A DNA stretch of 52,940 bases from Treponema sp. (GTDB taxonomy: Bacteria; Spirochaetota; Spirochaetia; Treponematales; Breznakiellaceae). Position numbers and translations under genes: made by a program. Position 1 is the first letter of the stretch. Every line of letters begins with the position of its first letter. Of the stretch, positions 8,094 through 44,465 are shown in pieces. The notes below the pieces were generated by a model. It made no database searches. It worked only from the letters and a program-made list of their open reading frames with translations, and was not told where the DNA came from. Location: assembly GCA_031288495.1 (NCBI GenBank), contig JAITRH010000246.1, positions 1-52,940 of the forward strand. Direction: 5' to 3'.

Positions 8094-8353
8094 ACTCTCT
8101 TATAGTCTTCCCCTACAGCCTCTGCCCTGGGAACCTTGAAAACAATTAAAGTGAGGCTCTTTTCATCTAACACGGTGAAACAAGCCCTGGTATCACAAGG
8201 ATCTCCCGCTCTTTTATTCCATTTAACCTTTCAAAAGAAACCCTCACTTCCAAAACAGTACCATTATCCCTCGGTATTGATTCATTACAAAAAACACACC
8301 CTTCCTTAATTCGAGCATAAAACCTCGGCAATGCTTCAAAAGGCCACCTTTAT

Positions 8354-8380
8354 TTATCGGTCCTCAAATCTAGTGCCTTG
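8354..8380 (-). promoter_or_regulatory. Weak sigma-28-like promoter candidate for fliD
   Basis: The minus strand reads CAAGGCAC-N11-ACCGATAA. The -10 element matches GCCGATAA at 7 of 8 positions. The -35 element matches TAAAGTTT at only 3 of 8. It sits about 260 nt upstream of the fliD ATG. Confidence 0.25.
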
Positions 8381-8658
8381 ACAGCAATTTCATGGTACAG
8401 GCAAGTCCTATCTCCTCAATAGGTGATATCTAGAACCTACCTTGCCTCCCGCTTCCCTTACTGTATGAATAACAAAGTTTAGATTGTTCGATTATGCTAT
8501 TTTTCCTCTCTTGCCCACGGAACCGGCCCTCAAAATGTATACGCCTCGTATCCCTTTCGAGAGAGCAGGGCACGCTAAACGCATTCCTCCCTATACTACC
8601 ATAGGGACCTCTTGATAATTAAAATATACTATAAAACCTATGCTTATGAAAAGATTTA

Positions 8659-8700
8659 AGAAAAAAGAAAAAGACAGGGAAAGGCGCGATATTCCCTGTC
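8659..8700 (-). terminator. Rho-independent terminator after the downstream flaB
   Basis: Perfect 8-bp stem GACAGGGA/TCCCTGTC (8673-8680 / 8693-8700) with a 12-nt loop. On the minus strand it is followed by TTTTTCTTTTTTCTT (8659-8672). Confidence 0.75.
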
Positions 8701-8767
8701 TTGGATTTCAAAAGGCGACGTCCAGGTGCCTCTCAACCATATCCAATTTTAAAAACTGAAAACCCCA

Positions 8768-9601
8768 TTAACCAAGAAGTTGCAACACCGACTGGGTCCG
8801 CGTATTAGCCTGAGCCAACATGGCATTCCCCGCTTGGGACAGGATCTGATTTTTGGTATAACTAACCATTTCCGATGCCATATTCGTATCCCGAACCTGC
8901 GATTCTGAAGCCTGAAAATTTTCCGCTGCAATTGCCAAACCCTTAGCTGCCTCTTCAAAGCGGTTTTGATAAGCCCCAAGGTCAGCTCGCTGCTTAGAAA
9001 GTTGCCTTAAAGCATTATCCAGCGTTCCGATTCCCCCATTTGCCTTTTCAGCGTCGGTTATATCAAGACCCTCTATACCCAAAGCACTAGCAGTCATGGC
9101 CTCAATATAGACCCGTTCATTCTGATCCATATTAGCCCCAACCTGGAATACCGCGCCCTGATTACCCTCGGTCTCCCGCCCAAAACGCCCCGTTAGAATA
9201 TTCAACGTGTTAAATTGGGCATGACTTGCAACCCGATTGATTTCATCCACCAACTGGGAAACTTCTACCTGAATCTGGATACGATCTTCATCGGTATAAA
9301 TACCGTTGGCAGATTGGACCGACAATTCCCGAATACGATGCAGAATATCCTGGGTTTCCTGAAGATACCCTTCAGCGGTCTGAATAAAAGACACGCCATT
9401 TTGAACATTTCGTTCAGCCTGATTTAGACCCCGAATCTGACTCCGAAATTTTTCAGAAACCGCAAGCCCAGAAGCATCATCCGCCGCTTTATTGATCCGT
9501 TGCCCTGAGCTTAAACGCTCAATGTTCTGCGAAATTTCAGCCTGAGTGATACCCAGATTACGATTAGCATATTGAGCACTCAGGTTATGATTAATTATCA
9601 T
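8768..9601 (-). CDS. flaB: Flagellar filament core protein FlaB (flagellin), copy 1
   Basis: 277 aa. [17 protein letters not shown]... at the N-terminus and ...[19 protein letters not shown] at the C-terminus are the spirochaete FlaB/flagellin N and C domains. Confidence 0.95.
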
Positions 9602-9787
9602 ATAACCCTCCTTGGGTTAATAACCCCTACTATCCATAGTTAGGGTCGAACCGCACGATCGGAAACTCCAGAACCTGTTCACGCCACATATCCTGACATT
9701 TCCAAAAACGGCACGAATCGATCATCAGATGATTAAAAGTAACCCATCACCTAATAAACAATCCCTGCTATCGTACACTTGCTCTAT

Positions 9788-9816
9788 AATATACACCAAA
9801 AGGGATTTTTTGTCAA
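9788..9816 (-). promoter_or_regulatory. Sigma-70-type promoter candidate upstream of flaB copy 1
   Basis: The minus strand reads TTGACA-aaaaatcccttttggtg(17)-TATATT. It lies in the 340-nt flaB-flaB spacer, about 190 nt upstream of the ATG. Confidence 0.5.
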
Positions 9817-9940
9817 AATCGTAAGGTTAAAAATTACCGTTTTTTTTAAATTTTTATCCTGAAAATTAAGTCGTTCTGCTCTTTACTAGAGAGTCCCTCG
9901 GTCAAACAACCAAGGGCCCCCTACATTGTCAAAATACGAC

Positions 9941-10801
9941 CTATTGAAGAAGCTGCAGTACCGACTGGGTCCGCTGATTTGCCTGAGCCAACATAGCCGT
10001 ACCGGCTTGGGAAAGAATCTGATCCCGGGTAAAGGAAACCATCTGCTTTGCCATGTCAGTATCCCTAATCCGAGATTCCGAGGCCTGGAAATTTTCAGCA
10101 CCAATGTCAATGCCACCAATGGCATGTTCAAGCCGATTCTGGTAAGCTCCGAGGTCTGCCCGCTGCTTACTAACTATCTTGAGGGCTTCATCCAAAACCC
10201 CAATAGCCCGGTTGGAATCTTCCGCGCTTTCAAGGCTCACAAAGCTCTGATCCTCCACATTCCGCAATCCCAGTCCCGTCGAAGTCATGGTACCCACAAA
10301 TACCTGCTCCCGCTGATCAATATTGGCCCCAATATGAAGCCACATCGAAGCGGTAAGGGTATTCTCCCCATCCTGGCGAGCATACCGACCGGTAAGCATG
10401 TTCAATCCATTGAACTGGGCGTGGCTGGCAATACGATCGATTTCGTCCACCAACTGGGAAACCTCAATCTGAATCTGCATACGATCTTCTTCAGTATAAA
10501 TGCCGTTGGCCGATTGAACCGCCAATTCCCGAACCCGCTGAAGAATATCCTGGGTTTCCTGGAGATACCCCTCGGTGGTTTGGATAAAAGAAATCCCATC
10601 CGCAGCATTGGCAGACGCCCGATTTAAGCCCTTAATCTGACTCCGAAATTTTTCGGAAACTGCAAGCCCAGAAGCGTCATCTCCCGCCCGGTTAATCCGA
10701 AGCCCCGAAGTGAGCTTCTCCATATTCTTGGTAAGATTACCCTGGGTAACATTAAGAGACCTGTCGGCAAACTGAGCACTCAGGTTATGATTGATGATCA
10801 T
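9941..10801 (-). CDS. flaB: Flagellar filament core protein FlaB (flagellin), copy 2
   Basis: 286 aa. [17 protein letters not shown]... and ...[19 protein letters not shown] mark it as a paralogue of the downstream copy. Confidence 0.95.
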
Positions 10802-10955
10802 GTCATCCTCCTTGATAATTAATAAGGCATCCTTGCCTTGACTTTTACTTAAGTGTTTTTGCTCTTAAACCGATATTTATTATTAATACCAGTCACTCGA
10901 ACCAAGAGAAACAACACCGCGGATGTCCTTCTCTCACTGTCATTTTATACTTATA

Positions 10956-10982
10956 ATATCGGTAATGTCCATAAAAACTTTA
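10956..10982 (-). promoter_or_regulatory. Sigma-28 (FliA-type) promoter of flaB copy 2
   Basis: The minus strand reads TAAAGTTT-ttatggacatt(11)-ACCGATAT. The consensus is TAAAGTTT-N11-GCCGATAA, so the -35 element is perfect and the -10 element matches 6 of 8. It lies about 155 nt upstream of the ATG. Confidence 0.75.
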
Positions 10983-11154
10983 GCATATTTTTTATTTTTT
11001 GCCCGAGCATCTTAGACTTTATCTTAATATCCTCCTGTTCAGAGTACTGCTTGGCTTGTAGGAAAGCTTGTTTTCTATTAGGGTGTATATAAGAAGCTGT
11101 ATGGTATAGCGTATATCAGAGAGGAGCTGTAGGAGCCAAAACGTTAGATTAGCT

Positions 11155-12036
11155 ATGATAGATTTACATACCCATTCAAGCGCTTCTGACGGCACTTTAA
11201 GCCCTGCACAGCTCGTTGAAAATGCCCTGCAGCAGGGTTTATCGGCTTTAGCCTTGACGGATCATGATACTATTGCCGGCCTTGACGAGGCAAAACAGGA
11301 AGCGGAGAAAAGCGCCCTCCGGTTTATTCCGGGAATTGAAATTGAGATAACCTGGGAACCAGGGGAATTTCACCTATTGGGCCTGGGAATCTATCAGCCC
11401 AGGGCGGCTTTTTTGGAAGCCCTTGCTGAATTAGCCCATCTGCGGGAAATGCGGAACCGAAAGATTATCCAACGGATGCAGGAATGGAGTATCCCGGTTA
11501 CCTATGAGGATATCCTTTCCCTCTTTAGATCCAGCGGCAAGTCCATAGGGCGGCCGCATTTTGCCTCTCTCCTGATAAAACTGGGAGTGGTTAAAAATCA
11601 AGAACAGGCCTTTTCCCAGTATCTCGGAAGGGGAAGGCCTTTCTATGTTCCCAAGGAAGGGATGGAATTCCGTCGAGCGGTACAGGTTATCCAGGATGCA
11701 GGAGGCATTGCCGTATTAGCTCATCCCATGTCTCTGTATGTTGCCTGGGGTCATCTCCCGGCTCTGGTAAAGGCGCTCAAGGAGCAGGGACTTAACGGTA
11801 TTGAAGCCTGGCACCCCACTGCCAAGGTTCGATCCTGCAAGCGACTTGAGGAACTGGGAAAATCCCTCGGACTCTGTATCACCGCAGGAAGTGATTTCCA
11901 CGGCGAAACCCGGCCTGAAAGGAAATTGGGCATCACCGCAGGAAATATAAAAATCGACGATGCGATTTTAGCTGCCATACCAGCCTTGGAAGGGCTTAGG
12001 TCGAGGGCTATTACCCCTAAAAGCTTAGCATCTTGA
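11155..12036 (+). CDS. PHP-domain phosphoesterase (TrpH/YciV-like)
   Basis: MIDLHTHSSASDGTLSPAQLV...LALTDHDTIAGL is the PHP-family metal-binding N-terminus. 293 aa. Confidence 0.85.
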   Translation: MIDLHTHSSASDGTLSPAQLVENALQQGLSALALTDHDTIAGLDEAKQEAEKSALRFIPGIEIEITWEPGEFHLLGLGIYQPRAAFLEALAELAHLREMRNRKIIQRMQEWSIPVTYEDILSLFRSSGKSIGRPHFASLLIKLGVVKNQEQAFSQYLGRGRPFYVPKEGMEFRRAVQVIQDAGGIAVLAHPMSLYVAWGHLPALVKALKEQGLNGIEAWHPTAKVRSCKRLEELGKSLGLCITAGSDFHGETRPERKLGITAGNIKIDDAILAAIPALEGLRSRAITPKSLAS

Positions 12037-12121
12037 GGCTTTTCAAAGGTCAAGTTTGAAAAAGCTTCTTTATGTATTAACCCGGTTCCAACAGGGGCTA
12101 TTGCGGAACCGCCTCTATGGT

Positions 12122-12163
12122 AAACTAGAGAGAAAAAAAATTGGTTTTCCTCTCTAGTTTTTC
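12122..12163 (+). terminator. Rho-independent terminator after the PHP gene
   Basis: Stem AAACTAGAGAG / CTCTCTAGTTT (12122-12132 / 12150-12160), followed by TT. Confidence 0.65.
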
Positions 12164-12186
12164 TATATTTATAAAGGAGTATCTGT

Positions 12187-12597
12187 ATGTTTACTACTAC
12201 AGTAAGTCCCCGATTCGGCGATGCAGACGGCTTGGGGCATATCAATAATACGGTTTTAGCCGTCTGGTTTGAACTGGCACGGAATCCCCTCTTTAGAATT
12301 TTTAATCCCACCCTGGATCTGTCTTTCCAACATTGGCCCCTCATCATGGCCCACACGGAGTATGATTTTGTGGGTGAGCTTTTTTTACCCTATGATGTGG
12401 AGATTCGTACTTTCATCAGCCATATCGGTACCACGTCTTTTACGCTGTACCATGAAGCCTGGCAACAGGGCAGACTCTGCGTCACAGGGAAGGCGGTAGT
12501 GGTTCATTATGATTTTATCAAAAAACAAAGCACGCCCCTTCCTGAAGATAAGAAGCTCCTCCTGGCAGAACACCTCCTTAACGCTGCTAAAGGGTAA
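12187..12597 (+). CDS. Hotdog-fold acyl-CoA thioesterase (4HBT/YbgC-like)
   Basis: 136 aa. VSPRFGDADGLGHINNTVLAVWFE is the typical 4HBT-family N-terminal catalytic region. An AAGGAG SD precedes the ATG. Confidence 0.75.
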   Translation: MFTTTVSPRFGDADGLGHINNTVLAVWFELARNPLFRIFNPTLDLSFQHWPLIMAHTEYDFVGELFLPYDVEIRTFISHIGTTSFTLYHEAWQQGRLCVTGKAVVVHYDFIKKQSTPLPEDKKLLLAEHLLNAAKG

Positions 12598-12620
12598 TGC
12601 CTTCGATGTTCACCGACCTA

Positions 12621-13502
12621 TCATGCTACATAACTTTCCAGGAGCCGCTGACAAGAAGGATGCTGTAAGCGTTTGAGGGCTTTCTTTTCAATCTGACGGA
12701 TCCGTTCTTTGGTCAAATTAAAGTAATCCCCTATTTCTTTTAAAGACATAGGCGCCTTATTTCCTAAACCAAAGCGAAACCGGATAATTTCCGCTTCTTT
12801 AGGGTTGAGCGTACGCAGTACGGTTTCAATGTCATCATGGAGCGCACTGGTTACCGCATGCTCGTCTGGGGAGCGATAATGCTCATCTTCAATAAAATCA
12901 CCCAAAAGGGAAGAATCTTTATCCGCATAGACCGGGTTTTCCAGGGATATAAGATCCCGACTAATGTTGACCAGGTCCTCTACATGAGCGACATCCATAT
13001 CCAGCAACCGGGCTATTTCGGTGATCTCTGCCTCTGCACCATGGCCGTCCTGGACGAGCTTCCGCGCCTTTTCAATCTGGACCAATTCATTGGCCCGATT
13101 AAGCGGAAGCCGGATCATCCGGGATTTTTCACAAATCGCCTTAAGAATGGCCTGGCGGATCCACCAGACTGCATAGGAAATGAAATGATACCCTTTATTT
13201 ACATCATACCGTTCGATAGCATTTAAGAGTCCTATATTGCCTTCACTGATAAGATCCGACAAGGGGAGTCCCTGACCTTGATATTTCTTGGCCACATTGA
13301 CTACAAATCGAAGGTTCGCACTAGCCAGCTTATCCTGAGCAAGCTTACTGCCCTGGGCTGCGGCCCGGGCGATCTGATCTTCTTCTTCTTTGGTCAGCAA
13401 AGGAATCCGGTTAATTTCTTTTAAATACAGGGAAAGAATATTTTCATCGGAATTACTAGTTCCCGCAGAGGTATTCTTTTTTTTGTTTTTTACGCTCGTC
13501 AT
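12621..13502 (-). CDS. Sigma-70 family RNA polymerase sigma factor (short SigA/RpoS-like, regions 1.2-4)
   Basis: LYLKEINRIPLLTKEEE (region 1.2), RFVVNVAKKYQGQGLPLSDLISEGNIGLLNAIERYD...YAVWWIRQAI (region 2) and LKEIGDYFNLTKERIRQIEKKALKRL (region 4.2). It is not FliA-like, because region 1.2 is present. From memory, T. pallidum also has a sigA-type gene next to groES; this needs checking. Confidence 0.85.
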   Translation of the reverse strand: MTSVKNKKKNTSAGTSNSDENILSLYLKEINRIPLLTKEEEDQIARAAAQGSKLAQDKLASANLRFVVNVAKKYQGQGLPLSDLISEGNIGLLNAIERYDVNKGYHFISYAVWWIRQAILKAICEKSRMIRLPLNRANELVQIEKARKLVQDGHGAEAEITEIARLLDMDVAHVEDLVNISRDLISLENPVYADKDSSLLGDFIEDEHYRSPDEHAVTSALHDDIETVLRTLNPKEAEIIRFRFGLGNKAPMSLKEIGDYFNLTKERIRQIEKKALKRLQHPSCQRLLESYVA

Positions 13503-13813
13503 TGTTGTACCTCCTCGTAGCGTGAGTTTATATATAAAATATATGCAAAAACCATACCAACTTGTAAAGAATACCGATTATAGGCAATAAAATCGAGTAT
13601 TATCTGATAAGGTTGGATATAATATCTCATAAAAGCAGGCATAGAGGAAGACCTCAGCCTGGTTTTTCCAGGAGCAGGAAGGCTTTGTGCTGTCTTCCCT
13701 GGGGCAATCGTTCCATAATGACCCATTTTCGCTAAATTGTTTGAAAAATGTATCAAATTGACTCTCTCTTTGATTCGATTCGATGCATACCATAGGCAGC
13801 ACCTCAATAATTC

Positions 13814-13842
13814 TTGACCTTTGGAAGAATTTTTCGTATATT
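13814..13842 (+). promoter_or_regulatory. Sigma-70-type promoter candidate for groES
   Basis: TTGACC-tttggaagaatttttcg(17)-TATATT, about 50 nt upstream of the groES ATG. No CIRCE inverted repeat was seen. Confidence 0.55.
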
Positions 13843-13892
13843 CTATTTATCCAAATATTCAACAATTATTATTAAGATAATGGAGGAAACTT

Positions 13893-14159
13893 ATGAAAGT
13901 AAAGCCCTTAGCAGATCGGGTCATAGTCAAACTTGAGAAAAACGAAGCTAAAACTGCGGGGGGGATTATTATTCCCGATACGGCTCAAGAAAAAACCCAG
14001 ACTGGCGTGGTGGTGGAAATTGGCGACGACAGTGAAGTGATCAAAGTAAAACCGGGCCAAAAGGTGCTGTACGATAAGTACGCCGGGACCCAGATAAAAA
14101 TCGACGGGGTAGAGCACCTGATTCTTAAGATGGCGGATATTATCGCGGTTATTGAGTAG
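13893..14159 (+). CDS. groES: Co-chaperonin GroES
   Basis: 88 aa. MKVKPLADRVIVKLEKNEAKTAGGIIIPDTAQEKTQTGVVVEIG is the canonical Cpn10 sequence. Confidence 0.95.
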   Translation: MKVKPLADRVIVKLEKNEAKTAGGIIIPDTAQEKTQTGVVVEIGDDSEVIKVKPGQKVLYDKYAGTQIKIDGVEHLILKMADIIAVIE

Positions 14160-35095: not shown

Positions 35096-35179
35096 CCAAA
35101 GCGTATCGTGAGGGTATCTTTTGAAGGCCGGATCATGCTCTCTGTGCCGATTCAGTAAAAAATACCTTGGAGGATGGGT

Positions 35180-36841
35180 ATGCCTATGAAATATATGAAA
35201 AAAAAGCGGTTGGTGGGCTCTATCGTAACCGCGTGTATCCTATTAGTGAACGCATCCGAATGGGAAGGAAGCATCTGGGAAGGAAATGCGGTGGTCGCTG
35301 CTCCGGGGGACCTTCCTGCAGAAGGGCACTACGTGGCTACCAATGTATTTCCCCGGAATACGGTGGTGTATATTACCAATCTTGAAACAGAAAAAACCAT
35401 TCCCGTTATCGTTGCCGCCAGCTTAGACAATCCGGGGCTCTTGATTACCCTGACGAGGGAGGCTGCCGAGGCAATAGGGATGCCCATAGGAGCCCTTGGC
35501 CGAATCAAGATGATACAGCCTGCAGACCCGGAAGCCTTTTCCAAATATCTTGCTCAGGTGGCTCAAAATAGAGGGGGTCCATCTTTTGATGAAGCCGCTC
35601 AAAGGAACGAGCGGGGAGCCGGGGATGCGGAGTCCGCGCTTCCTGAAAAGCCTGCCCTAAGTCCATCTGCCGCCGGATCCGGCCGTCCGGATTCGGTACC
35701 GCAAGAAAACGCCCCCCGCAAGGAGGCGATAGAGATCCCTGAAGCCTATAAACCCGGTACCCTTTCAGAGGTAAGGGTAGGGGAGAAACCTAAAGCGGAT
35801 CCGGAGTTGCTGGTGCTCCATGCGGCAGACCCGGAAGCCCCCGGCACGAATCATCCCGAGGTGAGCATCTTTCCTGACATCACCGGAGAGTCCAGGGTCG
35901 TCATCAATGAAAAGCCGGAAGAACGGCTGGAACAGCCTGAAATCTATTGGACGGGAACCCTAAGCGCCAACGAGCCTGAACGGACCGGTATGGAAGAAGC
36001 GCCGGGTAGGGGTAAAGAACCGGCAATGCCGGTACACTTTCCCCCTCAAGTACGGGGTGATCTGGCCGAGAGGCCCGGAACTTCCGGCAAAGGACCGGAC
36101 ATACCTGACGTCAATCCTCCGGAAGCCCTCCCCTCGGGCAGTTCCGATAGGGAGTCCCTGGCGATACAGGAAAAACCTATTTTGGAAGACAGCCTCATAA
36201 GGCCGGAAACCCATTTGCCCCTCCACATTCCCTCCCTTGCCAAGGGGGATCCGGGCCTTCAGATACAGGAGAAGCCGAGCACCGAGGCGATAGCCGCAAT
36301 AAGTCCAGAAAGTTCCGAAGGGCCCCGATATCCGGGGGATGCCTACAGCCTGAGGCTGACTCCTGCAGAAGAGCGGCCTCCTGCGGAACGGAAGGGTACC
36401 GGCCTTCCTGAGGAAGCGGAAATAGCCCCTATTGCCCATCCGGCGGAGGATGACCAAACCATCGACCCCAGTTTGATCATTGATGCAATCACCTATCCTG
36501 CGGCGGATTTCCAGGGACCTTTAGCGCCCGTCATACCTCCTATCCCGGAGGCCTCGAGAAGCGCCGGGTTTCCGCCGAAGTTTTCGGTTCCCCTGATCCG
36601 CCGTTTGGAAAAGGGTAAGTATTACCTCCAATTAGGGGCGTACCATAAAGCCGAGCTGGTAGAGCCCGAATTAGCTAAGATAGGAACCGTCTATCCCTTA
36701 GCCATTCAACATGCCGGGATGCCTGAGCTGCCCCTGTATCGGATTTTACTGGGCCCCCTGAATCTAGGGGAGAGCGGCACCCTTTTGCAGCGTTTCAGGG
36801 GTATTGGATACCACGACGCCTTTCTGAGATTGGGGACCTAG
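35180..36841 (+). CDS. RlpA-like (DPBB) protein with a long Pro/Glu-rich linker and a C-terminal SPOR domain
   Basis: The N-terminal region HYVATNVFPRNTVVYITNLETEKTIPVIVAASLDNPGLLITLTREAAEAIG resembles the RlpA double-psi barrel. The C-terminal KGKYYLQLGAYHKAELVEP...YRILLGPLNLGESGTLLQRFRGIGYHDAFL is a SPOR domain. I chose ATG 35180 as the start (GGAGG 6 nt upstream); the track ORF started at 35174. Confidence 0.7.
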   Translation: MPMKYMKKKRLVGSIVTACILLVNASEWEGSIWEGNAVVAAPGDLPAEGHYVATNVFPRNTVVYITNLETEKTIPVIVAASLDNPGLLITLTREAAEAIGMPIGALGRIKMIQPADPEAFSKYLAQVAQNRGGPSFDEAAQRNERGAGDAESALPEKPALSPSAAGSGRPDSVPQENAPRKEAIEIPEAYKPGTLSEVRVGEKPKADPELLVLHAADPEAPGTNHPEVSIFPDITGESRVVINEKPEERLEQPEIYWTGTLSANEPERTGMEEAPGRGKEPAMPVHFPPQVRGDLAERPGTSGKGPDIPDVNPPEALPSGSSDRESLAIQEKPILEDSLIRPETHLPLHIPSLAKGDPGLQIQEKPSTEAIAAISPESSEGPRYPGDAYSLRLTPAEERPPAERKGTGLPEEAEIAPIAHPAEDDQTIDPSLIIDAITYPAADFQGPLAPVIPPIPEASRSAGFPPKFSVPLIRRLEKGKYYLQLGAYHKAELVEPELAKIGTVYPLAIQHAGMPELPLYRILLGPLNLGESGTLLQRFRGIGYHDAFLRLGT

Positions 36842-37485: not shown

Positions 37486-38073
37486 TTAGAACATAAAGCC
37501 TACAGCGGCTTTTGCAAGGAGGCCGTGGCCTACTTGCGGACTTAATTCAGTGTCGCCGAAAGGAAGAACCACGCCATAGATAAGGTGGCTTCTCAGGAAG
37601 AGGGTGTCGGTGAAGAAAAAGTCAATCCCCAGGCCGCCTCGGATCCAAATATCGCTCCACCAGTCTTTCTCAAAATTAAGTTCCACATCCACCCCTCCGG
37701 TAGGGAAGAACACAAAGGCGTCTGAAATGGGGATGGGGTATTTCCCATACACCCCAAAGCCGAGAGCCGAGGTAGGTTGAGGAACCCCCTCATCAGGAAC
37801 TGAGGTCGTGGTACCCTCAACAGTTACCTCTGCCTCACCTGATTTATACATGAAGGCAAGATTGAACTCCACCCATTGGCTGAGACCGAAAAAGGCACAG
37901 GCCCCGAAGGATCCCCGGTTAAAGGTCCACTCATAATTGTACCCATAGAGGCTCTCTGTTCCTCCCTGGAAGGTATACCCTCCCAGGAGCCCGCCGCCTG
38001 CGGCCTTCTCTAATGCAAATGCCCCGCTCCCCAGGAGCACCAGGCAAAACCCTACAATAATACCCTTTTTCAC
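37486..38073 (-). CDS. Small outer-membrane beta-barrel protein (OmpW/OmpA-barrel-like)
   Basis: Signal peptide KKGIIVGFCLVLLGSGAFA, alternating hydrophobic beta-strand pattern and a C-terminal ...AAVGFMF aromatic terminus. I moved the start to GTG 38073 (GAGGTG SD). Confidence 0.65.
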   Translation of the reverse strand: MKKGIIVGFCLVLLGSGAFALEKAAGGGLLGGYTFQGGTESLYGYNYEWTFNRGSFGACAFFGLSQWVEFNLAFMYKSGEAEVTVEGTTTSVPDEGVPQPTSALGFGVYGKYPIPISDAFVFFPTGGVDVELNFEKDWWSDIWIRGGLGIDFFFTDTLFLRSHLIYGVVLPFGDTELSPQVGHGLLAKAAVGFMF

Positions 38074-38169
38074 AGAACACCTCGTTACGCGCAAATTCCT
38101 ATATCCATGGAAAACTTCCATGCCTGAATCGATCCCGTGGCGGGATCGGTTTCATTCCCTAAAACCGGC

Positions 38170-39114
38170 TTAAAACCGTTCCGACGCCATAGCCATGATT
38201 TCCGCGGTCTTCACATCCAGGGCCTTTGCCCGCAGCCGCCGGGTTGCCCCGCTGCCGCTGATGCTGCCGGTTATGACGATAGACGCCCCCAGCATCTTTC
38301 CTATGGACACCGCGGAATTATCATCCACCTCGCCGGAGAATTGGAAATCCTGTTCCGCCCGGATAGCGTCAAGGCTCTTTCTATCCACGATTTTGAATTT
38401 TCTGGTTTCCACCAGCAGATAGGCCAGTTCTTCGATGACAAAGTCCGACATATCCCGGTCCCGTGAAGCAATGCTTATGATTGCCAGGGTCGAGTTCCTC
38501 GGCAGGACCTGGATTAATTCTTCTGCGGCCCGGTACACCGCTCCTTCTATGGTAGTATCCGCGGCAATCTGGGGACGGGGAGTCTGCACCGGTTCGGGAT
38601 TCCGTACCGCTACCGGTTCGGGGTTCCGCGCCGGCTGAAAGGTCTGTACCGGCTCAGGAGCCGGCAAGGCCCTAGCCGCCGCCAAGGAGCCCTGCTCGGA
38701 ACTCCTCGGCCGGGGGCTTATGGCGATAGTTTGCTGGATCTCCGTATTGATAAGCCTGCCGTACCGCATGAGGGGCCTGATGGTTACCCGGTTTGAAACG
38801 GAATCCACCACTACCTGTTTTTTATCCCCGATATTCCATACCCCTCCTTTGGGGGTGGTTTCCGCGAGATGAACAATGTTTCTCCCATCCCGGACGATTA
38901 TTTTTTCCGTGGTTTTTTGAAACACATGGGCCACAATAGCGTCATTAACCCATACGGCAATATCTTTCTCCACATTCGTCCCGTTAATGACAATTTCCGA
39001 CTCTCCCTGCCGTGCCACGGCGTTTGGAGCATTCGGCGGCGCCAGTCTTGCCTGAGGGTACAGTGCCCCGGTGAGGGCCAGTCCCCATACTAACCCTAGT
39101 ATTTTTCCTTTCAT
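38170..39114 (-). CDS. Secreted protein with a C-terminal CsgG/HfaB-FlgO-LpoB-type domain
   Basis: It has a signal peptide and a Pro-rich linker with RNPEPV x2. The C-terminal region is TLAIISIASRDRDMSDFVIEELAYLLVETRKFKIVDRKSLDAIRAEQDFQFSGEVDDNSAVSIGKMLGASIVITGSI. Confidence 0.5.
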   Translation of the reverse strand: MKGKILGLVWGLALTGALYPQARLAPPNAPNAVARQGESEIVINGTNVEKDIAVWVNDAIVAHVFQKTTEKIIVRDGRNIVHLAETTPKGGVWNIGDKKQVVVDSVSNRVTIRPLMRYGRLINTEIQQTIAISPRPRSSEQGSLAAARALPAPEPVQTFQPARNPEPVAVRNPEPVQTPRPQIAADTTIEGAVYRAAEELIQVLPRNSTLAIISIASRDRDMSDFVIEELAYLLVETRKFKIVDRKSLDAIRAEQDFQFSGEVDDNSAVSIGKMLGASIVITGSISGSGATRRLRAKALDVKTAEIMAMASERF

Positions 39115-39201
39115 GTTTCTCCGTTACTCCATTACAAACCTATGGCTCGGATGGGGGTACAGAGGGCAGGGGAACCCCGCCATCTGTACCCTGCAACTTG
39201 G

Positions 39202-39753
39202 CTATAAGCCAAGCAGTTGATTCAGTTCTTGGTCGGTCTTCTCAAACACCGTGTCCACGTACTCGTTGATGTCTTTTTTGAAACTGTTCTTATCCAAGTA
39301 GACCACCACGTAGGTGTTGCCCCGGCCGTTCATATAGGGTCCAAAGGTCTTTACCTTCCGCAGGGTTTGGGTAACGATCTGCTTGGTGGAATCCTGAAAA
39401 CGGGCCACCCGGTCGGTTTCCCCATTGGCCTCGGCCCGCCGAACCGCGTTCTCGCCGATAGCCGCCACCTCGGTCTCCAAACTCCCCGCCAGGTTCTCCC
39501 GGGCGAGGAGGGTAGCCTGCTGTAAGGCATCCGACTCGTTCTGGAATTCCGAGATCCCCATGCCGTAGTACACGTCATCCGTGGTCTGATGCCCCTGTAT
39601 CCACTGGGCGACTTCATTCGGCGGCCCCCCTTGAGGTTGTTGCGGCTGGCTCGCTGCGGGCTCTGAGGGCGGAGCGCTGACACAGCTTATAAGCAAAGCC
39701 CCTGCTGCTACGGCCGCCCATACGACTGATACGATTCGCTTTTTCATCTTCAA
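39202..39753 (-). CDS. LPP20/FlgP-family-like lipoprotein
   Basis: Lipobox LLISC. DDVYYGMGISEFQNESDALQQATLLARENLAGSLETEV... resembles the LPP20 domain. A GGAGG SD is present. Confidence 0.5.
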   Translation of the reverse strand: MKMKKRIVSVVWAAVAAGALLISCVSAPPSEPAASQPQQPQGGPPNEVAQWIQGHQTTDDVYYGMGISEFQNESDALQQATLLARENLAGSLETEVAAIGENAVRRAEANGETDRVARFQDSTKQIVTQTLRKVKTFGPYMNGRGNTYVVVYLDKNSFKKDINEYVDTVFEKTDQELNQLLGL

Positions 39754-39789
39754 TCCTCCTTAAGATTGATACGAAATAGAGAAAATAAT

Positions 39790-40782
39790 TTAATCACCTA
39801 AAAAGGCGTTAAATTCATGGATAAAGTTCGCTTCCAGGTCCTTTTCTATTTCCCGGAAGGCGATGGTATAGGCCATATCCCGGTTCCGGGCCCCTTGGCG
39901 CTCATAATTCTTGGTGTAGGAAAAGAGGAGGTCCCCGGCCTTGCTACTGAGCTGCAAGGTGATCCCTGAATGGATGAAAACCCCCGCGGGGAAGTGCTCT
40001 TCATTACAAGAGATCTCTCCGGTAATGGCGTAGTCTCCCTGGTTCCGCACCGCCACATAGCCGCTTTTTTCCAGCACATCCAAGAGTTTACGCTGGATCC
40101 GGCCCTGCGGATCCGCTTCAATCGCCGCACTAAACCGCAGTTTGGAACGAAAGGTTCTGCTGTCGGCCATGATGTTCCGGGTATACTCCAGGGTTTCCCG
40201 ATACTCGGTTCCGGCATCGGACAGTTCTCCCAAGCCGAGGATATCCGCTTCAATGCATTGGGCAATGGAAGCGGCCCGCTTAAAGGTCTGGTATTGCTGC
40301 AAGGGGTCTCCGGTTTCCTTCAGCATGGTTTCCAGCATGGTCAGGTTCGTGGCGATCCGGTTTTGATAGAGTTCCGCGGCTTCCTGTTTGTTGATGTAGG
40401 CCAGGACATACCAGTTCCGGTTCTGGTCGTTATACCAGGGAGAGGTAAAATGGGCGCCCAGGAATTCCGCCTGACTTGCGATCCGTACCTGGTTGCTCAT
40501 AGCGGTTTGCTTTACCGCCTGTTTCTGGCTGCCGGAAACCACTTCGTTATACCGGTCAAGCAGTTCCTGCTGTACGGAAACGGTGCTCTTAAAATAGAGG
40601 GAAAGTCCCTTCATCGCGGCATTCTTCGCTTCCTCATCCCCTGTCCCCATACCCATGGCGCTTATGAACCGGGAGTCCGGATATTCCTGTTCCCGAAACC
40701 GGACCCACCGGGGTTCGGGTCCAACCGCAAAGACCCTGAGGCCCGTAACGAGGCCCAGGATCAGCATCATGTTCTTACCCAT
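39790..40782 (-). CDS. Secreted protein with an N-terminal LPP20-like domain and an unknown C-terminal domain
   Basis: It has a signal peptide. SRFISAMGMGTGDEEAKNAAMKGLSLYFKSTVSVQQEL...WYVLAYINKQEA resembles the LPP20 pattern. A GGAGGTG SD lies 4 nt upstream. Confidence 0.45.
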   Translation of the reverse strand: MGKNMMLILGLVTGLRVFAVGPEPRWVRFREQEYPDSRFISAMGMGTGDEEAKNAAMKGLSLYFKSTVSVQQELLDRYNEVVSGSQKQAVKQTAMSNQVRIASQAEFLGAHFTSPWYNDQNRNWYVLAYINKQEAAELYQNRIATNLTMLETMLKETGDPLQQYQTFKRAASIAQCIEADILGLGELSDAGTEYRETLEYTRNIMADSRTFRSKLRFSAAIEADPQGRIQRKLLDVLEKSGYVAVRNQGDYAITGEISCNEEHFPAGVFIHSGITLQLSSKAGDLLFSYTKNYERQGARNRDMAYTIAFREIEKDLEANFIHEFNAFLGD

Positions 40783-40793
40783 CTGCCACCTCC

Positions 40794-41333
40794 TTAGGGG
40801 GACAAAAGCTGATTATACATGGTGAGGTACTTGCCCCCGGAAAGCTCCGTGCTCCCGCTGGTCAAGATCTCCCCGGTCCGGGTATCGATGGTTTTCATGT
40901 GAACCTCGATCTTCCGGCCCACCTTGATCAAGGTGCCCAAGACCACCGCAGAGGCCCCGAGCATTCCCCCCAAGGCTACGGCGGAGTTGTCGCTCACATA
41001 ACCGGAGGCGCTGAAATCAAACTCTGCCGCGAGACGGTCGATCTGGGAACGTTCAACCAGGGTGATATTGGGGCGCTTCGTAAGATAATGGCCGGTCTGT
41101 TCCGCAAAATAGCGGCCCAGCACGCTTTGGTGTCCGTCCACATTAAGAAAATCCAGGACCGCCACGGTCATCTTCTCTTCTGTTGTACCGGAGGAGGAAG
41201 CCCCGGAACCGGTAAGGCCCTGGAGGAGGCCCTTCTTTTCCATGTCCCGGCTTACCGTGGGGTCCTCTTGAGAAAATCCGAAACCCCCGGCCAGGACCAG
41301 CATCGCCGCCATGGAAAAGAGTGTTCGTTTCAT
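40794..41333 (-). CDS. Secreted CsgG/HfaB-FlgO-LpoB-type domain protein
   Basis: Signal peptide MKRTLFSMAAMLVLAGGFGFS. The core is TVAVLDFLNVDGHQSVLGRYFAEQTGHYLTKRPNITLVERSQIDRLAAEFDFSASGYVSDNSAVALGGMLGASAVVLGTL. I moved the start to ATG 41333 (AAGGAG SD). Confidence 0.5.
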   Translation of the reverse strand: MKRTLFSMAAMLVLAGGFGFSQEDPTVSRDMEKKGLLQGLTGSGASSSGTTEEKMTVAVLDFLNVDGHQSVLGRYFAEQTGHYLTKRPNITLVERSQIDRLAAEFDFSASGYVSDNSAVALGGMLGASAVVLGTLIKVGRKIEVHMKTIDTRTGEILTSGSTELSGGKYLTMYNQLLSP

Positions 41334-41416
41334 GTAATTCTCCTTAAAAACTGGCAACTGTACGACTGCGGCGGAACCCCGGGGGCCTCAACCGCAGATC
41401 CGATCAAGCCGGGGCG

Positions 41417-43075
41417 TTACGGTATTTTCTGTATAGCCCGTTTCTGCGAGGGTACGGTCCCTATCGAATAGTACCCGCTCAAATCAACAGACTCATAGGT
41501 TGATTTCTCGCTTTCCACACCCGCAGCATTGACCACGGCTACTTTGAAATAGGCGGTACCCGTACCACTCCAATCCTCACTGTAAAAGTAAGTTTGAGGA
41601 GCAGTTACCTCACCATCATAGTTATAGGGCCCATTTGCATTCCGTGACCAATAAATGACATACTTCACCGCGCCACTTACCGAATTCCACGAAACATATA
41701 CCTTATCTGATGATGATCGGTATGCCCATATAGTACCCGGCGGAGAAAGAGCAGATCCGCTGTTTCCACTTGAAGACCAGGTTGTTGCAGAACCCTTTGA
41801 TGATTGGGTGCTTTCCCCAGCGCTATTCACCGCGCTTACCTTGTAATAATAGGTAGAGCCTGGAGATAAACCCGTATCAGAATAGGATAAAGCAGATGAT
41901 GAGGAAGATACCGTTACCTCCTTATGGAAAGAATAGTAGATATCTGCAGAACTACGGTAAATCTTATAACTGGTAGCGCCAGGAACCTCAGACCAATATA
42001 CGGTAATGCTGCTTGAAGAGCTTGCCGACGCATATACTGATTGAGGAGCAGAAGGGATGGCCTCTTGGGTTTTTGCAGAAACCGCTGTTGATTTTGGGCT
42101 TTCTCCATAGGCATTATACGCAGATATCCTATAATAATACGTCGTACCCTGGTACAATCCCTCATCAGTATAGAAAGTGGAACTAGTGGTTCTCAGGAAT
42201 GACTCGATATCATCGTCCTGCATCTTACGGTAGATATTATAACCGGAAGCGCCTTGAACCGAAGACCAGCTTAGGGTAATACTGGTTGAAGAACTTGCCG
42301 ATGTACTGATGTTAGAAGGAGTGGAAGGCGGGGACCCACTGCTTCCTTCCCCTGAATATGTTCCAAACGAGGCAGTAGCAGACTTAGGGCCTTCACCGGC
42401 GGCATTGAATGCGCTGACTTTGAAATATCCATGGTTATACTTCGTCCAGTCCACACTGATATATGGAGGTGCCTCAATCGACTCTTCGCGCTCATATTCC
42501 TCTTCTTTGTCTTCAAATGCCCAATAAACAAAATAGAGCAAAGCCCCATCCACCGGATTCCATGTAACAGATACTTCATCTTCGGATATACGGGTTGCGG
42601 TTACACCGGTTGGCGCAACTGGCGGCTGAACACCATTACCTCCACCCGCGGTTGTGTTTCCTGGAACGATTGATGAGTCGGGACCATATCCCTTACCATT
42701 ATACGCCCCTACTTTATAATAATAGAAGGTATTCGGGGATAATCCGGTATCGGTATAGGATGTACCTTTTATCTCCTCTTTCCGCACACTATAGGGGCCG
42801 TCGGCACTATCCGCACGGGATACCCTATAATTAGTAGCGCTTTCGACTTTAGACCACGTTAGGGTAATAGTGCCGGAAGTTCTTGCTGATACAGTTACGC
42901 CTGTAGGAGCAAGAGTAGGAGCAGCCGCGGCTTCGCCACCCCTGCCCACGGCTTCCTCTAGGGCACCCCCAAAGCCGCCGCCGTCTCCGCCGTCACTGTC
43001 GCATGCGCTCAGGACTAACCCGAATACCAGCACAAGGCTGCATATTCCCGTCATAATTGTCTGATACTTTTTCAT
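41417..43075 (-). CDS. Lipoprotein composed of five fibronectin type III-like repeats
   Basis: Lipobox LVLSAC. There are five units of about 90-95 aa, e.g. SITLSWSSVQGASGYNIYR...YTDEGLYQGTTYYYRISAYNAYGESPKS. The start ATG 43075 follows AAAGGAGG and forms an ATGA overlap with the upstream ORF stop. Confidence 0.8.
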   Translation of the reverse strand: MKKYQTIMTGICSLVLVFGLVLSACDSDGGDGGGFGGALEEAVGRGGEAAAAPTLAPTGVTVSARTSGTITLTWSKVESATNYRVSRADSADGPYSVRKEEIKGTSYTDTGLSPNTFYYYKVGAYNGKGYGPDSSIVPGNTTAGGGNGVQPPVAPTGVTATRISEDEVSVTWNPVDGALLYFVYWAFEDKEEEYEREESIEAPPYISVDWTKYNHGYFKVSAFNAAGEGPKSATASFGTYSGEGSSGSPPSTPSNISTSASSSTSITLSWSSVQGASGYNIYRKMQDDDIESFLRTTSSTFYTDEGLYQGTTYYYRISAYNAYGESPKSTAVSAKTQEAIPSAPQSVYASASSSSSITVYWSEVPGATSYKIYRSSADIYYSFHKEVTVSSSSSALSYSDTGLSPGSTYYYKVSAVNSAGESTQSSKGSATTWSSSGNSGSALSPPGTIWAYRSSSDKVYVSWNSVSGAVKYVIYWSRNANGPYNYDGEVTAPQTYFYSEDWSGTGTAYFKVAVVNAAGVESEKSTYESVDLSGYYSIGTVPSQKRAIQKIP

Positions 43076-43422
43076 GAAGTACCTCCTTTTTGCAGAAACC
43101 CCACCGGAATAGGCCAAGAAGGGTCTTTTCCCGCGGCTCCCATATATAATGCCCTTATGGGCAAGGTTTCTGAGGGTAATTGCAGGAAGAAGTCCCCCGG
43201 TTCCACCGGAGCGCCATACCGGTCATGAAGTTCCAAGGTCCCGGCTACGGCTTGGCCTATCCAGGAACCTTGAACAAACCCGGCAGCTTCAGGACCGGTA
43301 CAGCTCTGCGGGGACAAAGAATGGCAGAGGTTTCCCCTTAGATACTGCATGGCTTCTAAATAAACTGCCAAACCTACGGCTGCGTTGGGCATACCATAAT
43401 AAGAGAAGGTTCTTTTATGCAT
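43072..43422 (-). CDS. Hypothetical 116-aa protein, first gene of the envelope operon
   Basis: Its stop overlaps the next start (ATGA at 43072-43075). It has no signal peptide and no recognised motif. Confidence 0.45.
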   Translation of the reverse strand: MHKRTFSYYGMPNAAVGLAVYLEAMQYLRGNLCHSLSPQSCTGPEAAGFVQGSWIGQAVAGTLELHDRYGAPVEPGDFFLQLPSETLPIRALYMGAAGKDPSWPIPVGFLQKGGTS

Positions 43423-43440
43423 CTCATCACCGCCTTTAAA

Positions 43441-43486
43441 GGTATTGGTAATACCGTATATTTACTTGTTTATACCAAGTAAATAT
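43441..43486. promoter_or_regulatory. Two adjacent palindromes (putative operator) in the divergent intergenic region
   Basis: GGTATT-ggt-AATACC lies at 43441-43455. A perfect 11-bp inverted repeat ATATTTACTTG-tttatac-CAAGTAAATAT lies at 43458-43486. Both sit between the envelope operon (minus strand) and the first XRE gene (plus strand). Confidence 0.55.
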
Positions 43487-43584
43487 GAAAAAAATCCGGT
43501 ACCACCTTAGTATGCACTTGTTATTACCTAGTTGTCAATACCCGGTAAAGACCTATCATACCAATTGAAGAATGTAAATACACT

Positions 43585-43944
43585 ATGAACATAGGACCAG
43601 AAAGATTGCGAAAATTGCTCTCCTTGAATATCAAGAGCCGCAGGAGATTCTTAGGCATATCCCAGGAGAAACTGGCGGAAACCGCGGACCTTTCCGCCCA
43701 GACCGTGAACGATATCGAGGGTTGCCGTATGTGGGTGAGCGATAAGACCCTCGTGAAACTCGCCAAGGCCCTGGACGTGGAGGCATACCAGCTTTTACTC
43801 CCCACTATTGAAGAAAAAACAACCGGAGAAACTCCGGAAGCCGCCCATTCCCCGGCAGAAACCTTACTCACCCTTCAGCATAATCTCAAAAAACAAATCG
43901 ACCGGCAATTTGATGAAGTCCTCAGATCCGGCCTATGGCGGTAA
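43585..43944 (+). CDS. XRE-family helix-turn-helix transcriptional regulator, copy 1
   Basis: LRKLLSLNIKSRRRFLGISQEKLAETADLSAQTVNDIEGCRMWVSDKTLVKLAKALDVEAYQLL is a Cro/C1-type HTH. 119 aa. Confidence 0.8.
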   Translation: MNIGPERLRKLLSLNIKSRRRFLGISQEKLAETADLSAQTVNDIEGCRMWVSDKTLVKLAKALDVEAYQLLLPTIEEKTTGETPEAAHSPAETLLTLQHNLKKQIDRQFDEVLRSGLWR

Positions 43945-44108: not shown

Positions 44109-44465
44109 ATGAACAACATGAGTGGAGGACCGGAATCATTGCGGACCCTGTTAGCCCTGAACATCAAATACCGGCGAAAAGTCCTGGGGATATCCCAGGA
44201 AAAACTCGCCAAAACCGCGGAGCTTTCGGCTCAGACCGTGAACGATATCGAGGCTTGTCGTATCTGGGTGAGCGACAAGACCATCGTGAACCTCGCCAAG
44301 GCCCTCAAGGTGGAGGCGTACCAGCTTCTCCTCCCGGTCTCTGAAGCCGAAAAAGGGCTTCCCGCCCCTTCGTCAACAGAAATCTTACTCACCTTACAGC
44401 AGAAGATTAAAAATGAGATCGATATGCAATTTTATAGGATCTTGAAACCCCGGGGCTTACCGTAA
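44109..44465 (+). CDS. XRE-family helix-turn-helix transcriptional regulator, copy 2 (tandem paralogue)
   Basis: LRTLLALNIKYRRKVLGISQEKLAKTAELSAQTVNDIEACRIWVSDKTIVNLAKALKVEAYQLL. I moved the start to ATG 44109; an alternative is 44118 and the track ORF began at 43983. Confidence 0.75.
   Translation: MNNMSGGPESLRTLLALNIKYRRKVLGISQEKLAKTAELSAQTVNDIEACRIWVSDKTIVNLAKALKVEAYQLLLPVSEAEKGLPAPSSTEILLTLQQKIKNEIDMQFYRILKPRGLP

Follow-up and report, generated by a model that had tools for sequence, protein, structure and literature searches.

A termite-gut Treponema gene cluster resembling the Helicobacter pylori lpp20 operon, extended by an LpoB-like protein and a small outer-membrane barrel, as a candidate periplasmic scaffold

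Lpp20 is a long-known antigen of Helicobacter pylori, and in their 2017 account of its structure Vallese et al. reportedly placed HP1457 in the lpp20 operon. HP1454 and HP1456 (Lpp20) are encoded in one H. pylori operon, and domain 1 of HP1454 is Lpp20-like (PMC11756786). HP1457 has been described as a homologue of LpoB and an orthologue of Campylobacter jejuni Cj0091 (PMC11394524), which is encoded in a lipoprotein operon (PMC3100323). Members of the LPP20 family are also found in the H-ring of Vibrio cholerae, where FlgP and FlgO pair one-to-one by edge beta-sheets; these two lipoproteins are arranged in two concentric rings of C58 symmetry with 58 stated copies of FlgP, and FlgO is an outer-membrane lipoprotein (Cys16) (bioRxiv 10.64898/2025.12.02.691832). 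Here we describe a gene cluster from a stretch of 52,940 nucleotides (nt) of Treponema sp. DNA (contig JAITRH010000246.1; the whole stretch is hereafter called the window). The cluster is a variant of the known lpp20-operon-type module, extended by a pair of genes for an LpoB-like protein and a barrel, and it may encode a periplasmic scaffold anchored to the outer membrane. The host is a termite-gut Treponema, and the nearest relatives of the proteins are those of Hollandina sp. SP2 and of Treponema metagenome-assembled genomes (MAGs). The author of an earlier note on this DNA knew of no such system described in spirochaetes, and our literature searches gave no account of it; searches for LPP20, CsgG and FlgO together also found nothing.

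The cluster spans positions 43422-37486 and consists of seven open reading frames (ORFs), g1 to g7, all on the minus strand (Table 1). The stop of g1 and the start of g2 overlap in an ATGA at 43075-43072, the remaining intergenic gaps measure 11-96 nt, and Shine-Dalgarno (SD) sequences of the AAGGAG type precede g3, g4, and g5. Signal sequences were assigned by eye from the translations, with no predictor. Lipoboxes were recognized in g2 (LVLSAC before D) and g5 (LLISC before V), whereas the signal peptides of g3, g4, g6, and g7 contain no Cys and have a cleavage site of the Ala/Ser type. These observations bear out two statements of the earlier note, namely that seven same-strand ORFs are joined by an ATGA overlap and short gaps, and that each of the six ORFs after the leader ORF carries a signal peptide or a lipobox. 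Its family calls were also right at the superfamily level, with five FN3 repeats, CsgG/FlgO/LpoB-type and LPP20-type proteins, and a small barrel. Homologous regions of relatives (contigs or loci labelled L0xx) were compared with the window, and six Treponema MAG loci were retrieved and compared by tblastn.

Table 1. Genes of the cluster and elements of its control region, with positions in the window
Feature	Positions	Strand	Length	Description
g1	43072..43422	minus	116 aa	ORF; no Pfam/NCBIfam match
g2	41417..43075	minus	552 aa from ATG	Lipoprotein; five FN3 repeats
g3	40794..41333	minus	179 aa	Secreted, non-lipidated; Gly/Ser-rich linker, then LpoB/FlgO/CsgG-N-type alpha/beta domain
g4	39790..40782	minus	330 aa	Secreted; three domains; HP1454-like
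g5	39202..39747	minus	181 aa	Lipoprotein; Pro/Gln-rich tether; homologue of H. pylori Lpp20 (HP1456)
g6	38170..39114	minus	314 aa	Secreted; beta-sandwich, Pro-rich linker, LpoB-like domain
g7	37486..38073	minus	195 aa from GTG	Small outer-membrane beta-barrel; C-terminal Phe
Control region	43423..43584			Divergent; putative sigma-70-like promoter and palindromic candidate operators
XRE-family HTH regulator	43585..43944	plus		Pfam HTH_3 6.9e-9; divergent from cluster
Second XRE-family HTH regulator	44118..44465	plus		Pfam HTH_3 6.1e-9

In its domains, the triad g3-g4-g5 appears to match the lpp20 operon: g3 belongs to the LpoB clan, g4 is HP1454-like, and g5 is a homologue of Lpp20. For g5, the Pfam LPP20 score is 25.7 bits against a cut-off of 25.9, a phmmer search of the PDB aligned its residues 1-158 with 5ok8 (H. 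pylori Lpp20; E 2e-5), and a profile of its family retrieved 5ok8 as the sole PDB match (E 4.5e-9), over the full length including the lipobox. The Pfam LPP20 score of g4 is only 16.2 bits, and its N-domain is homologous to g5 in profile-profile comparison (probability 96%, E 3e-9); this upholds the LPP20-like character that the earlier note ascribed to g4 and g5. The AlphaFold2 model of g4 (predicted local distance difference test, pLDDT, 82.8) consists of an SHS2/LPP20-like domain at residues ~24-131, a three-helix bundle at 132-214, and an alpha/beta domain at 216-328. Its top Foldseek match was 4kzs (HP1454), with E 9.2e-7, 290 aligned columns, and a template modelling (TM) score of 0.55 normalised on the target. 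Structure prediction followed by Foldseek, a check proposed in the earlier note, thus gave for g4 an LPP20/SHS2-like N-domain and an HP1454-like whole. As for g3, its Pfam scores are 29.4 bits for CsgG (6e-7), 27.6 bits for FlgO (2.9e-6; cut-off 22.6), and 19.7 bits for LpoB (8e-4), of which those for CsgG and FlgO exceed the Pfam cut-offs.

As appears to be the case in the lpp20 operon, a lipid-anchored Lpp20 (g5), a secreted three-domain HP1454-like protein (g4), and a protein of the LpoB family (g3) are encoded side by side. The Treponema cluster differs from that operon in its additional g6, g7 barrel, FN3 lipoprotein, and XRE regulators; g3 is non-lipidated, and g4 resembles HP1454 at the level of the fold only. 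The cj0089-cj0091 operon of C. jejuni shares with these loci the HP1457 orthologue Cj0091, which is LpoB-like; no LPP20/HP1454-like partner has been reported from it, and its likeness to the Treponema cluster is one of published description. The earlier note had seen FlgO/FlgP or CsgG as the closest relatives, whereas the nearest characterised ones are H. pylori Lpp20, HP1454, and the LpoB fold.

Further Foldseek matches of the g4 model, confined to its C-domain, were LptE, GNA1162, PelC, PqiC, and the CsgG pre-pore (E 1e-4 to 1e-2). The domain shares its alpha/beta fold with LptE, PelC, GNA1162 (DUF799), PqiC, and the CsgG N-domain, several of which dock on or ring outer-membrane barrels. It shows no relation to them in sequence, however, it is fused to LPP20 and helical domains and is not lipidated, and the linked barrel g7 is small. 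Literature on DUF799, DUF4810, and GNA1162 offered no functional lead. Because a profile-profile comparison of the g4 and g6 families matched only their signal peptides, the C-domain of g4 is not demonstrably homologous to the LpoB-like domains. An exhaustive search with the g4 family returned 2,079 clusters at 50% identity with E <= 1e-3, among them 1,195 with E <= 1e-10, and those of its members that are named belong to Treponema and Bacteroidota, with the annotation "LPP20 family lipoprotein". A protein of 932 aa at L017 3413-6211 (P0162) matches the g4 profile in four stretches and scores 44.8 bits for LPP20; in it the HP1454-like architecture is expanded, or fused, into several modules.

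A second LpoB-like protein follows the triad. The C-domain of g6 is paralogous to g3 (32% identity over 102 aa, E 4.5e-16), in agreement with the shared core that the earlier note had pointed out in the 179-aa and 314-aa proteins. Pfam matches of g6 to CsgG (37 bits) and LpoB (25.7 bits) are both over their cut-offs, and sequence searches of the PDB with g3 and g6 gave nothing relevant. In the AlphaFold2 model of g6 (pLDDT 83.5), an eight-strand beta-sandwich (38-131) is joined to a 125-residue alpha/beta LpoB-like domain (189-313) by an unstructured, Pro-rich linker of ~55 residues (132-187) whose low-confidence, disordered part covers residues 135-179. The best Foldseek match of the alpha/beta domain was the C-domain of LpoB (4q6l; E 1.5e-7, TM 0.76, root-mean-square deviation 2.8 A), followed by GNA1162, PelC, FlgT, and TolB-N; for this protein as well, the proposed modelling confirmed the fold. 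The g6 family has 294 matches, and among the best 120 listed most are full length and named "CsgG/HfaB family" or "TolB-like". The C-terminus of the family is nearly invariant (MASERF; ASERF in g6), so that a soluble-looking domain ends in Phe, as does g7 (GFMF).

In E. coli, LpoB carries a long disordered linker ahead of its globular domain and acts on the UB2H domain of PBP1B. The LpoB fold behind the long disordered linker of g6 raises the possibility of a peptidoglycan-synthase regulator module, in which g3 and g6, extending from the outer membrane through the periplasm, would activate a class A penicillin-binding protein (PBP) or bring it into position while the other proteins serve as an outer-membrane dock. 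Besides the Foldseek and Pfam matches of g6, the discussion of HP1457 and Cj0091 as LpoB homologues (PMC11394524) argues for such a role. However, neither g3 nor g6 is a lipoprotein: g6 has an N-terminal beta-sandwich in place of the lipid anchor of E. coli LpoB, and both proteins fall far under the cut-off of the NCBIfam LpoB equivalog (TIGR02722; 31.2 bits for g6 and 18.7 bits for g3 versus 110.55). Moreover, no PBP gene was linked to the cluster in any locus examined, and a UB2H-type PBP1B partner is not known in spirochaetes. We consider a regulator of this kind unlikely.

The same two proteins had suggested to the earlier note a CsgG-like export channel, that is, curli- or holdfast-type secretion with g3 or g6 as the CsgG/HfaB channel. 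On the one hand, the Pfam CsgG matches exceed the cut-off and NCBI names relatives of g6 "CsgG/HfaB family protein". On the other hand, the matches span just model positions 6-102 (g3) and 43-99 (g6) of 210, which is under half of the model. The two transmembrane beta-hairpins of CsgG build a 36-strand pore, but the domains of g3 and g6 measure ~120-125 aa and have no transmembrane hairpins, nor does the g6 model show any hairpin extension. For g6, LpoB outranks CsgG structurally, and CsgG was not among the top 50 Foldseek matches. Neither protein has a lipobox, and no CsgA/B/E/F-like or HfaA/D-like families were found among the cluster products in Pfam and NCBIfam. What these proteins share with CsgG is the N-terminal alpha/beta part, and in view of this and of the missing lipid anchor and partner genes we exclude a CsgG-type export channel; secretion of the curli or holdfast type is extremely improbable.

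The last gene of the row, g7, ends in GFMF as the earlier note had read, and its assignment as a small barrel agrees with a weak, sub-threshold match to the TDE1717 barrel family of NCBIfam (6.8e-10) and with the orthologue in L010, which passes Pfam OMP_b-brl with 32.6 bits. In the literature, TDE1717 is shown only beside the flaA cluster of T. denticola, with nothing on g6-like neighbours.

Comparison with relatives divided the cluster into conserved and variable parts. The genes g3-g4-g5-g6-g7 are syntenic in L002, L003, L004, L005, and L007 (61-89% identity), L006 has g3-g4-g5 together with a diverged g6, and the more distant L008 has g3-g4-g5 only, next to a helix-turn-helix (HTH) gene. 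The triad is therefore retained throughout L002-L008, with g3 at 65-88% identity in L002-L007 and 47% in L008. The adjacency of g6 and g7 is retained in L002-L005, L007, L010, and L012, and g7 follows g6 every time. Specifically, L010/L011 and L012, which derive from other Treponema, carry an HTH gene followed by g6, g7, a gene for a small LPP20-like lipoprotein, and an HP1454-like gene, without g3; the fold set recurs here in a different gene order. The unit is not a seven-gene operon conserved as a whole but splits into two sub-modules that are kept, g3-g4-g5 and g6-g7, and into variable parts. In the relatives examined, the neighbourhood comparison that the earlier note had proposed found co-conservation within each sub-module, while g1 was not conserved and g2 varied.

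Contexts of g4-like genes were also collected one at a time, which yielded 11 independent contexts. An LpoB/CsgG-like gene lies near the g4-like gene in six of them (the window lineage, L008, L010, L012, L013, and weakly L015). Two of the six, L013 and L015, are Bacteroidota-type contigs, so that the link between an LpoB-like gene and an HP1454-like gene, weak in L015, crosses phyla. The pairing is thus frequent but not obligate, because the other five contexts (L016-L020) have no detectable LpoB-like neighbour. In L013 (10100-12241), the LpoB-like and HP1454-like genes stand beside genes for a protein with Peptidase_C14 (caspase-like) and PEGA domains and for a cohesin-domain protein. Large proteins without Pfam matches precede the HP1454-like gene in L016 (1631-5919; 750, 404, and 261 aa) and in L020 (1464-5992; 767 and 738 aa), two contigs unrelated to each other, and these proteins may be a different, recurrent partner set.

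Taken together, fold precedents and gene linkage point to an outer-membrane-anchored periplasmic scaffold as the product of the cluster, a reading to which we assign a probability of about 0.5. A periplasmic or outer-membrane scaffold had been one of the proposals of the earlier note, and it remains the best reading because all products are periplasmic or outer-membrane proteins. In such a scaffold, g5 through its lipid and g7 through its barrel would tether the assembly to the outer membrane at its inner face. The protein g4 could bridge the two fold classes, with g5 as the partner of its LPP20 domain and g3 or g6 as that of its LptE-like domain; a precedent would be the pairing of Vibrio FlgP with FlgO, the family matched by g3 in Pfam. 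For its part, g6 would follow the design of LpoB (anchor, long linker, and globular head), with the beta-sandwich replacing the lipid. Since g6 always precedes the barrel gene g7, the sandwich may dock on g7, and the linker would let the LpoB-like head reach the peptidoglycan or the inner-membrane layer, as in E. coli LpoB. The likely role of the assembly would be envelope organisation or maintenance, with conditional expression.

Several points weigh against the scaffold. The link between g4 and HP1454, which comes from Foldseek on a predicted model, holds at the fold level only, and searches of the PDB with narrow and broad g4 profiles (A1 and A3) recovered neither HP1454 nor anything else meaningful. 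Likewise, g3 is placed by Pfam in the LpoB/FlgO/CsgG-N clan, and its likeness to HP1457 comes only via the published description of the latter. The five contexts in which the HP1454-like gene lacks a detectable LpoB-like neighbour count on the same side. Finally, a delta-hp1456 mutant of H. pylori does not differ from the wild type in flagellation, motility, bacitracin resistance, or the structure of its motor (PMC11756786). The earlier note had considered that the cluster might prove orthologous to a characterised system: it does resemble a named one, but the lpp20 operon has no established function, and the match gives the cluster a name and explains nothing.

The families involved also call to mind a flagellum-associated structure, in which FlgO/FlgP-like proteins would encircle the periplasmic motor as a ring or disk, or would form one over it at the outer membrane; spirochaete flagella are periplasmic. 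The Vibrio FlgO/FlgP system and the Campylobacter FlgP/FlgQ basal disk resemble the cluster in combining an LPP20-family protein with a FlgO/LpoB-clan protein at the inner face of the outer membrane, with the Pfam FlgO score of g3 over its cut-off and FlgP included in the LPP20 family. In addition, Lpp20 and HP1454 of H. pylori have been linked to FlgP and FapH both by co-purification and by two-hybrid signals (PMC11756786). Gene context adds one locus: in L012 (1-4759) the genes flgD-flgE-flbD-motA-motB and an unassigned 900-aa gene lie immediately upstream of the cluster, an arrangement peculiar to this one among the loci examined, whereas the surroundings of the cluster in the window and in L002-L010 showed no flagellar genes. 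A long beta-hairpin insert correlates with ring formation in FlgP (PMC12222027), but in the g4 model the corresponding residues 68-108, from the SHS2 helix to strand 2, form a helix and a disordered stretch with no long hairpin. Furthermore, g5 aligns end to end with Lpp20 without a large insertion, no FlgP chain was among the PDB matches, g3 does not have the lipid anchor found in FlgO, and the motor of the delta-hp1456 mutant is indistinguishable from that of the wild type (PMC11756786). Of the duplicated FlgO/FlgP-like or CsgG-like module proposed by the earlier note, the fold and superfamily assignments stand, but the ring hairpin of FlgP, the lipid anchor of FlgO, and, except in L012, the flagellar context do not. 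A flagellar structure is thus very unlikely.

The variable part of the cluster begins with g2, whose five FN3 repeats, as counted in the earlier note, were recovered by Pfam (fn3 E 4.5e-34) and by alignment, with 23-48% pairwise identity among them. In L002 the protein is 57% identical, versus 82-89% for g3-g6 there. In L003 the repeats are of another set and number and are followed by an extra C-terminal domain; the FN3 gene is absent from L007, L008, L010, and L012, and in L006 FN3 genes sit elsewhere. The G+C content at third codon positions (GC3) is 0.42 in g2 and 0.48 in g1 versus 0.58-0.72 in g3-g7, and the 42-44 kb bin is also GC-poorer (0.487). The lower GC3 of these two genes and the lower GC of the bin suggest different evolutionary dynamics or a more recent origin of the part at 41417-43422.

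These data also bear on the proposal that the cluster is a surface-display or adhesion locus, in which the functional product would be the FN3 lipoprotein, serving in the termite gut as a glycan binder or surface adhesin, and the remaining proteins would help to export or hold it. A five-FN3 lipoprotein does head the gene row, and it diverges fast, as surface proteins often do. However, the core is kept without the FN3 gene in the four loci that lack it, the GC3 of g2 differs, and no component has a secretion-channel architecture. The export-and-anchoring device for the FN3 protein envisaged by the earlier note is unlikely on the same grounds, and we give an adhesion locus only a slight chance. 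The FN3 lipoprotein is not what the system exists for; its gene is a variable passenger on the putative common transcript.

The 116-aa leader ORF of the earlier note, g1, has no place in the conserved cluster. Apart from lacking a Pfam or NCBIfam family, it had no tblastn match in L002-L007, and at its position L002 (4982-5113) and L003 (5861-5974) have just ORFs of 43 and 37 aa that share only the first residues with it. Because it is not conserved as a protein, g1 is probably not a protein gene but part of a long 5' leader, and it was rejected as a real leader gene. A short ORF start at this place (SD and ATG CAT/C AAA, encoding MHK(R/S)xF) is kept in relatives, with lengths and sequences that differ downstream. 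Judged from the sequence, this start could be a leader peptide (upstream ORF) in a 5' untranslated region of ~430 nt, or simply a conserved stretch of that region.

The control region separates the cluster from two divergent XRE-family HTH paralogues, which are 65% identical (pairwise E 3.7e-49). The tandem pair is kept in L002, L003, and L007, a single HTH gene is found in L008, L010, and L012, and hence a divergent HTH gene lies ahead of every cluster arrangement in these six loci. A promoter-like site directed toward the cluster (TTGACA-18-CATACT; 43538-43509, minus strand) overlaps a divergent plus-strand one directed toward the HTH gene (TTGTCA-16-TATCAT). The intergenic region is ~80% identical in L002 and L003, in which the -35 and -10 elements are invariant (TTGACA-18-(C/T)ATACT). 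Downstream of the cluster promoter-like site lie an inverted repeat, ATATTTACTTG-N7-CAAGTAAATAT, at 43458-43486 (chance alone would give 0.01 in the window; L002 has it too), and a second palindrome, GGTATTACCAATACC. L002 and L003 retain the promoter-like sites and palindromes, and L007 retains them in part. By their sequence, the palindromes are candidate operators of the XRE regulators, which suggests that the cluster is under repressor control.

Two further observations concern the surroundings of the cluster. A 555-aa secreted, Pro/Glu-rich protein is encoded on the plus strand at 35174-36841, converging on the cluster, and its ends look RlpA-like and SPOR-like by eye; this gene was rejected as a member of the system, with no Pfam match at E 1e-3 and no conservation beside the cluster. 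At window positions 8001-14000 the GC content is 0.43-0.48, with a strong GC skew of -0.23 at 8-10 kb, as compared with 0.56-0.61 in the adjoining 14-26 kb, and this may be a foreign or otherwise distinct segment.

A broader proposal would join these systems. Flagellar FlgO/FlgP, the lpp20 operon of H. pylori, and the Treponema cluster might be versions of one ancient and widespread module, in which LPP20/SHS2-fold and LpoB/FlgO-fold proteins co-assemble beneath the outer membrane into a ring or lattice. The H-rings and basal disks of flagella would then have branched off as a specialised form, and in spirochaetes the module, extended by g6 and g7, would build a periplasmic structure, not seen so far, that spans the flagellar space and links the outer membrane to the peptidoglycan layer. 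As a joint claim, this is speculative and rather improbable.

Since treponemes are not known to have the classical outer-membrane lipoprotein tethers, a scaffold anchored in the outer membrane and equipped with a long reach-through linker would be a candidate for the envelope organisation of treponemes. The recurrence of the fold set in distant gut spirochaetes, together with an HP1454-like family of ~2,000 clusters, suggests a general envelope module and not a Helicobacter curiosity. While the mechanism is not solved, the cluster offers a defined gene set, and the recurrence across phyla gives a concrete way into an operon that has long lacked an explanation.

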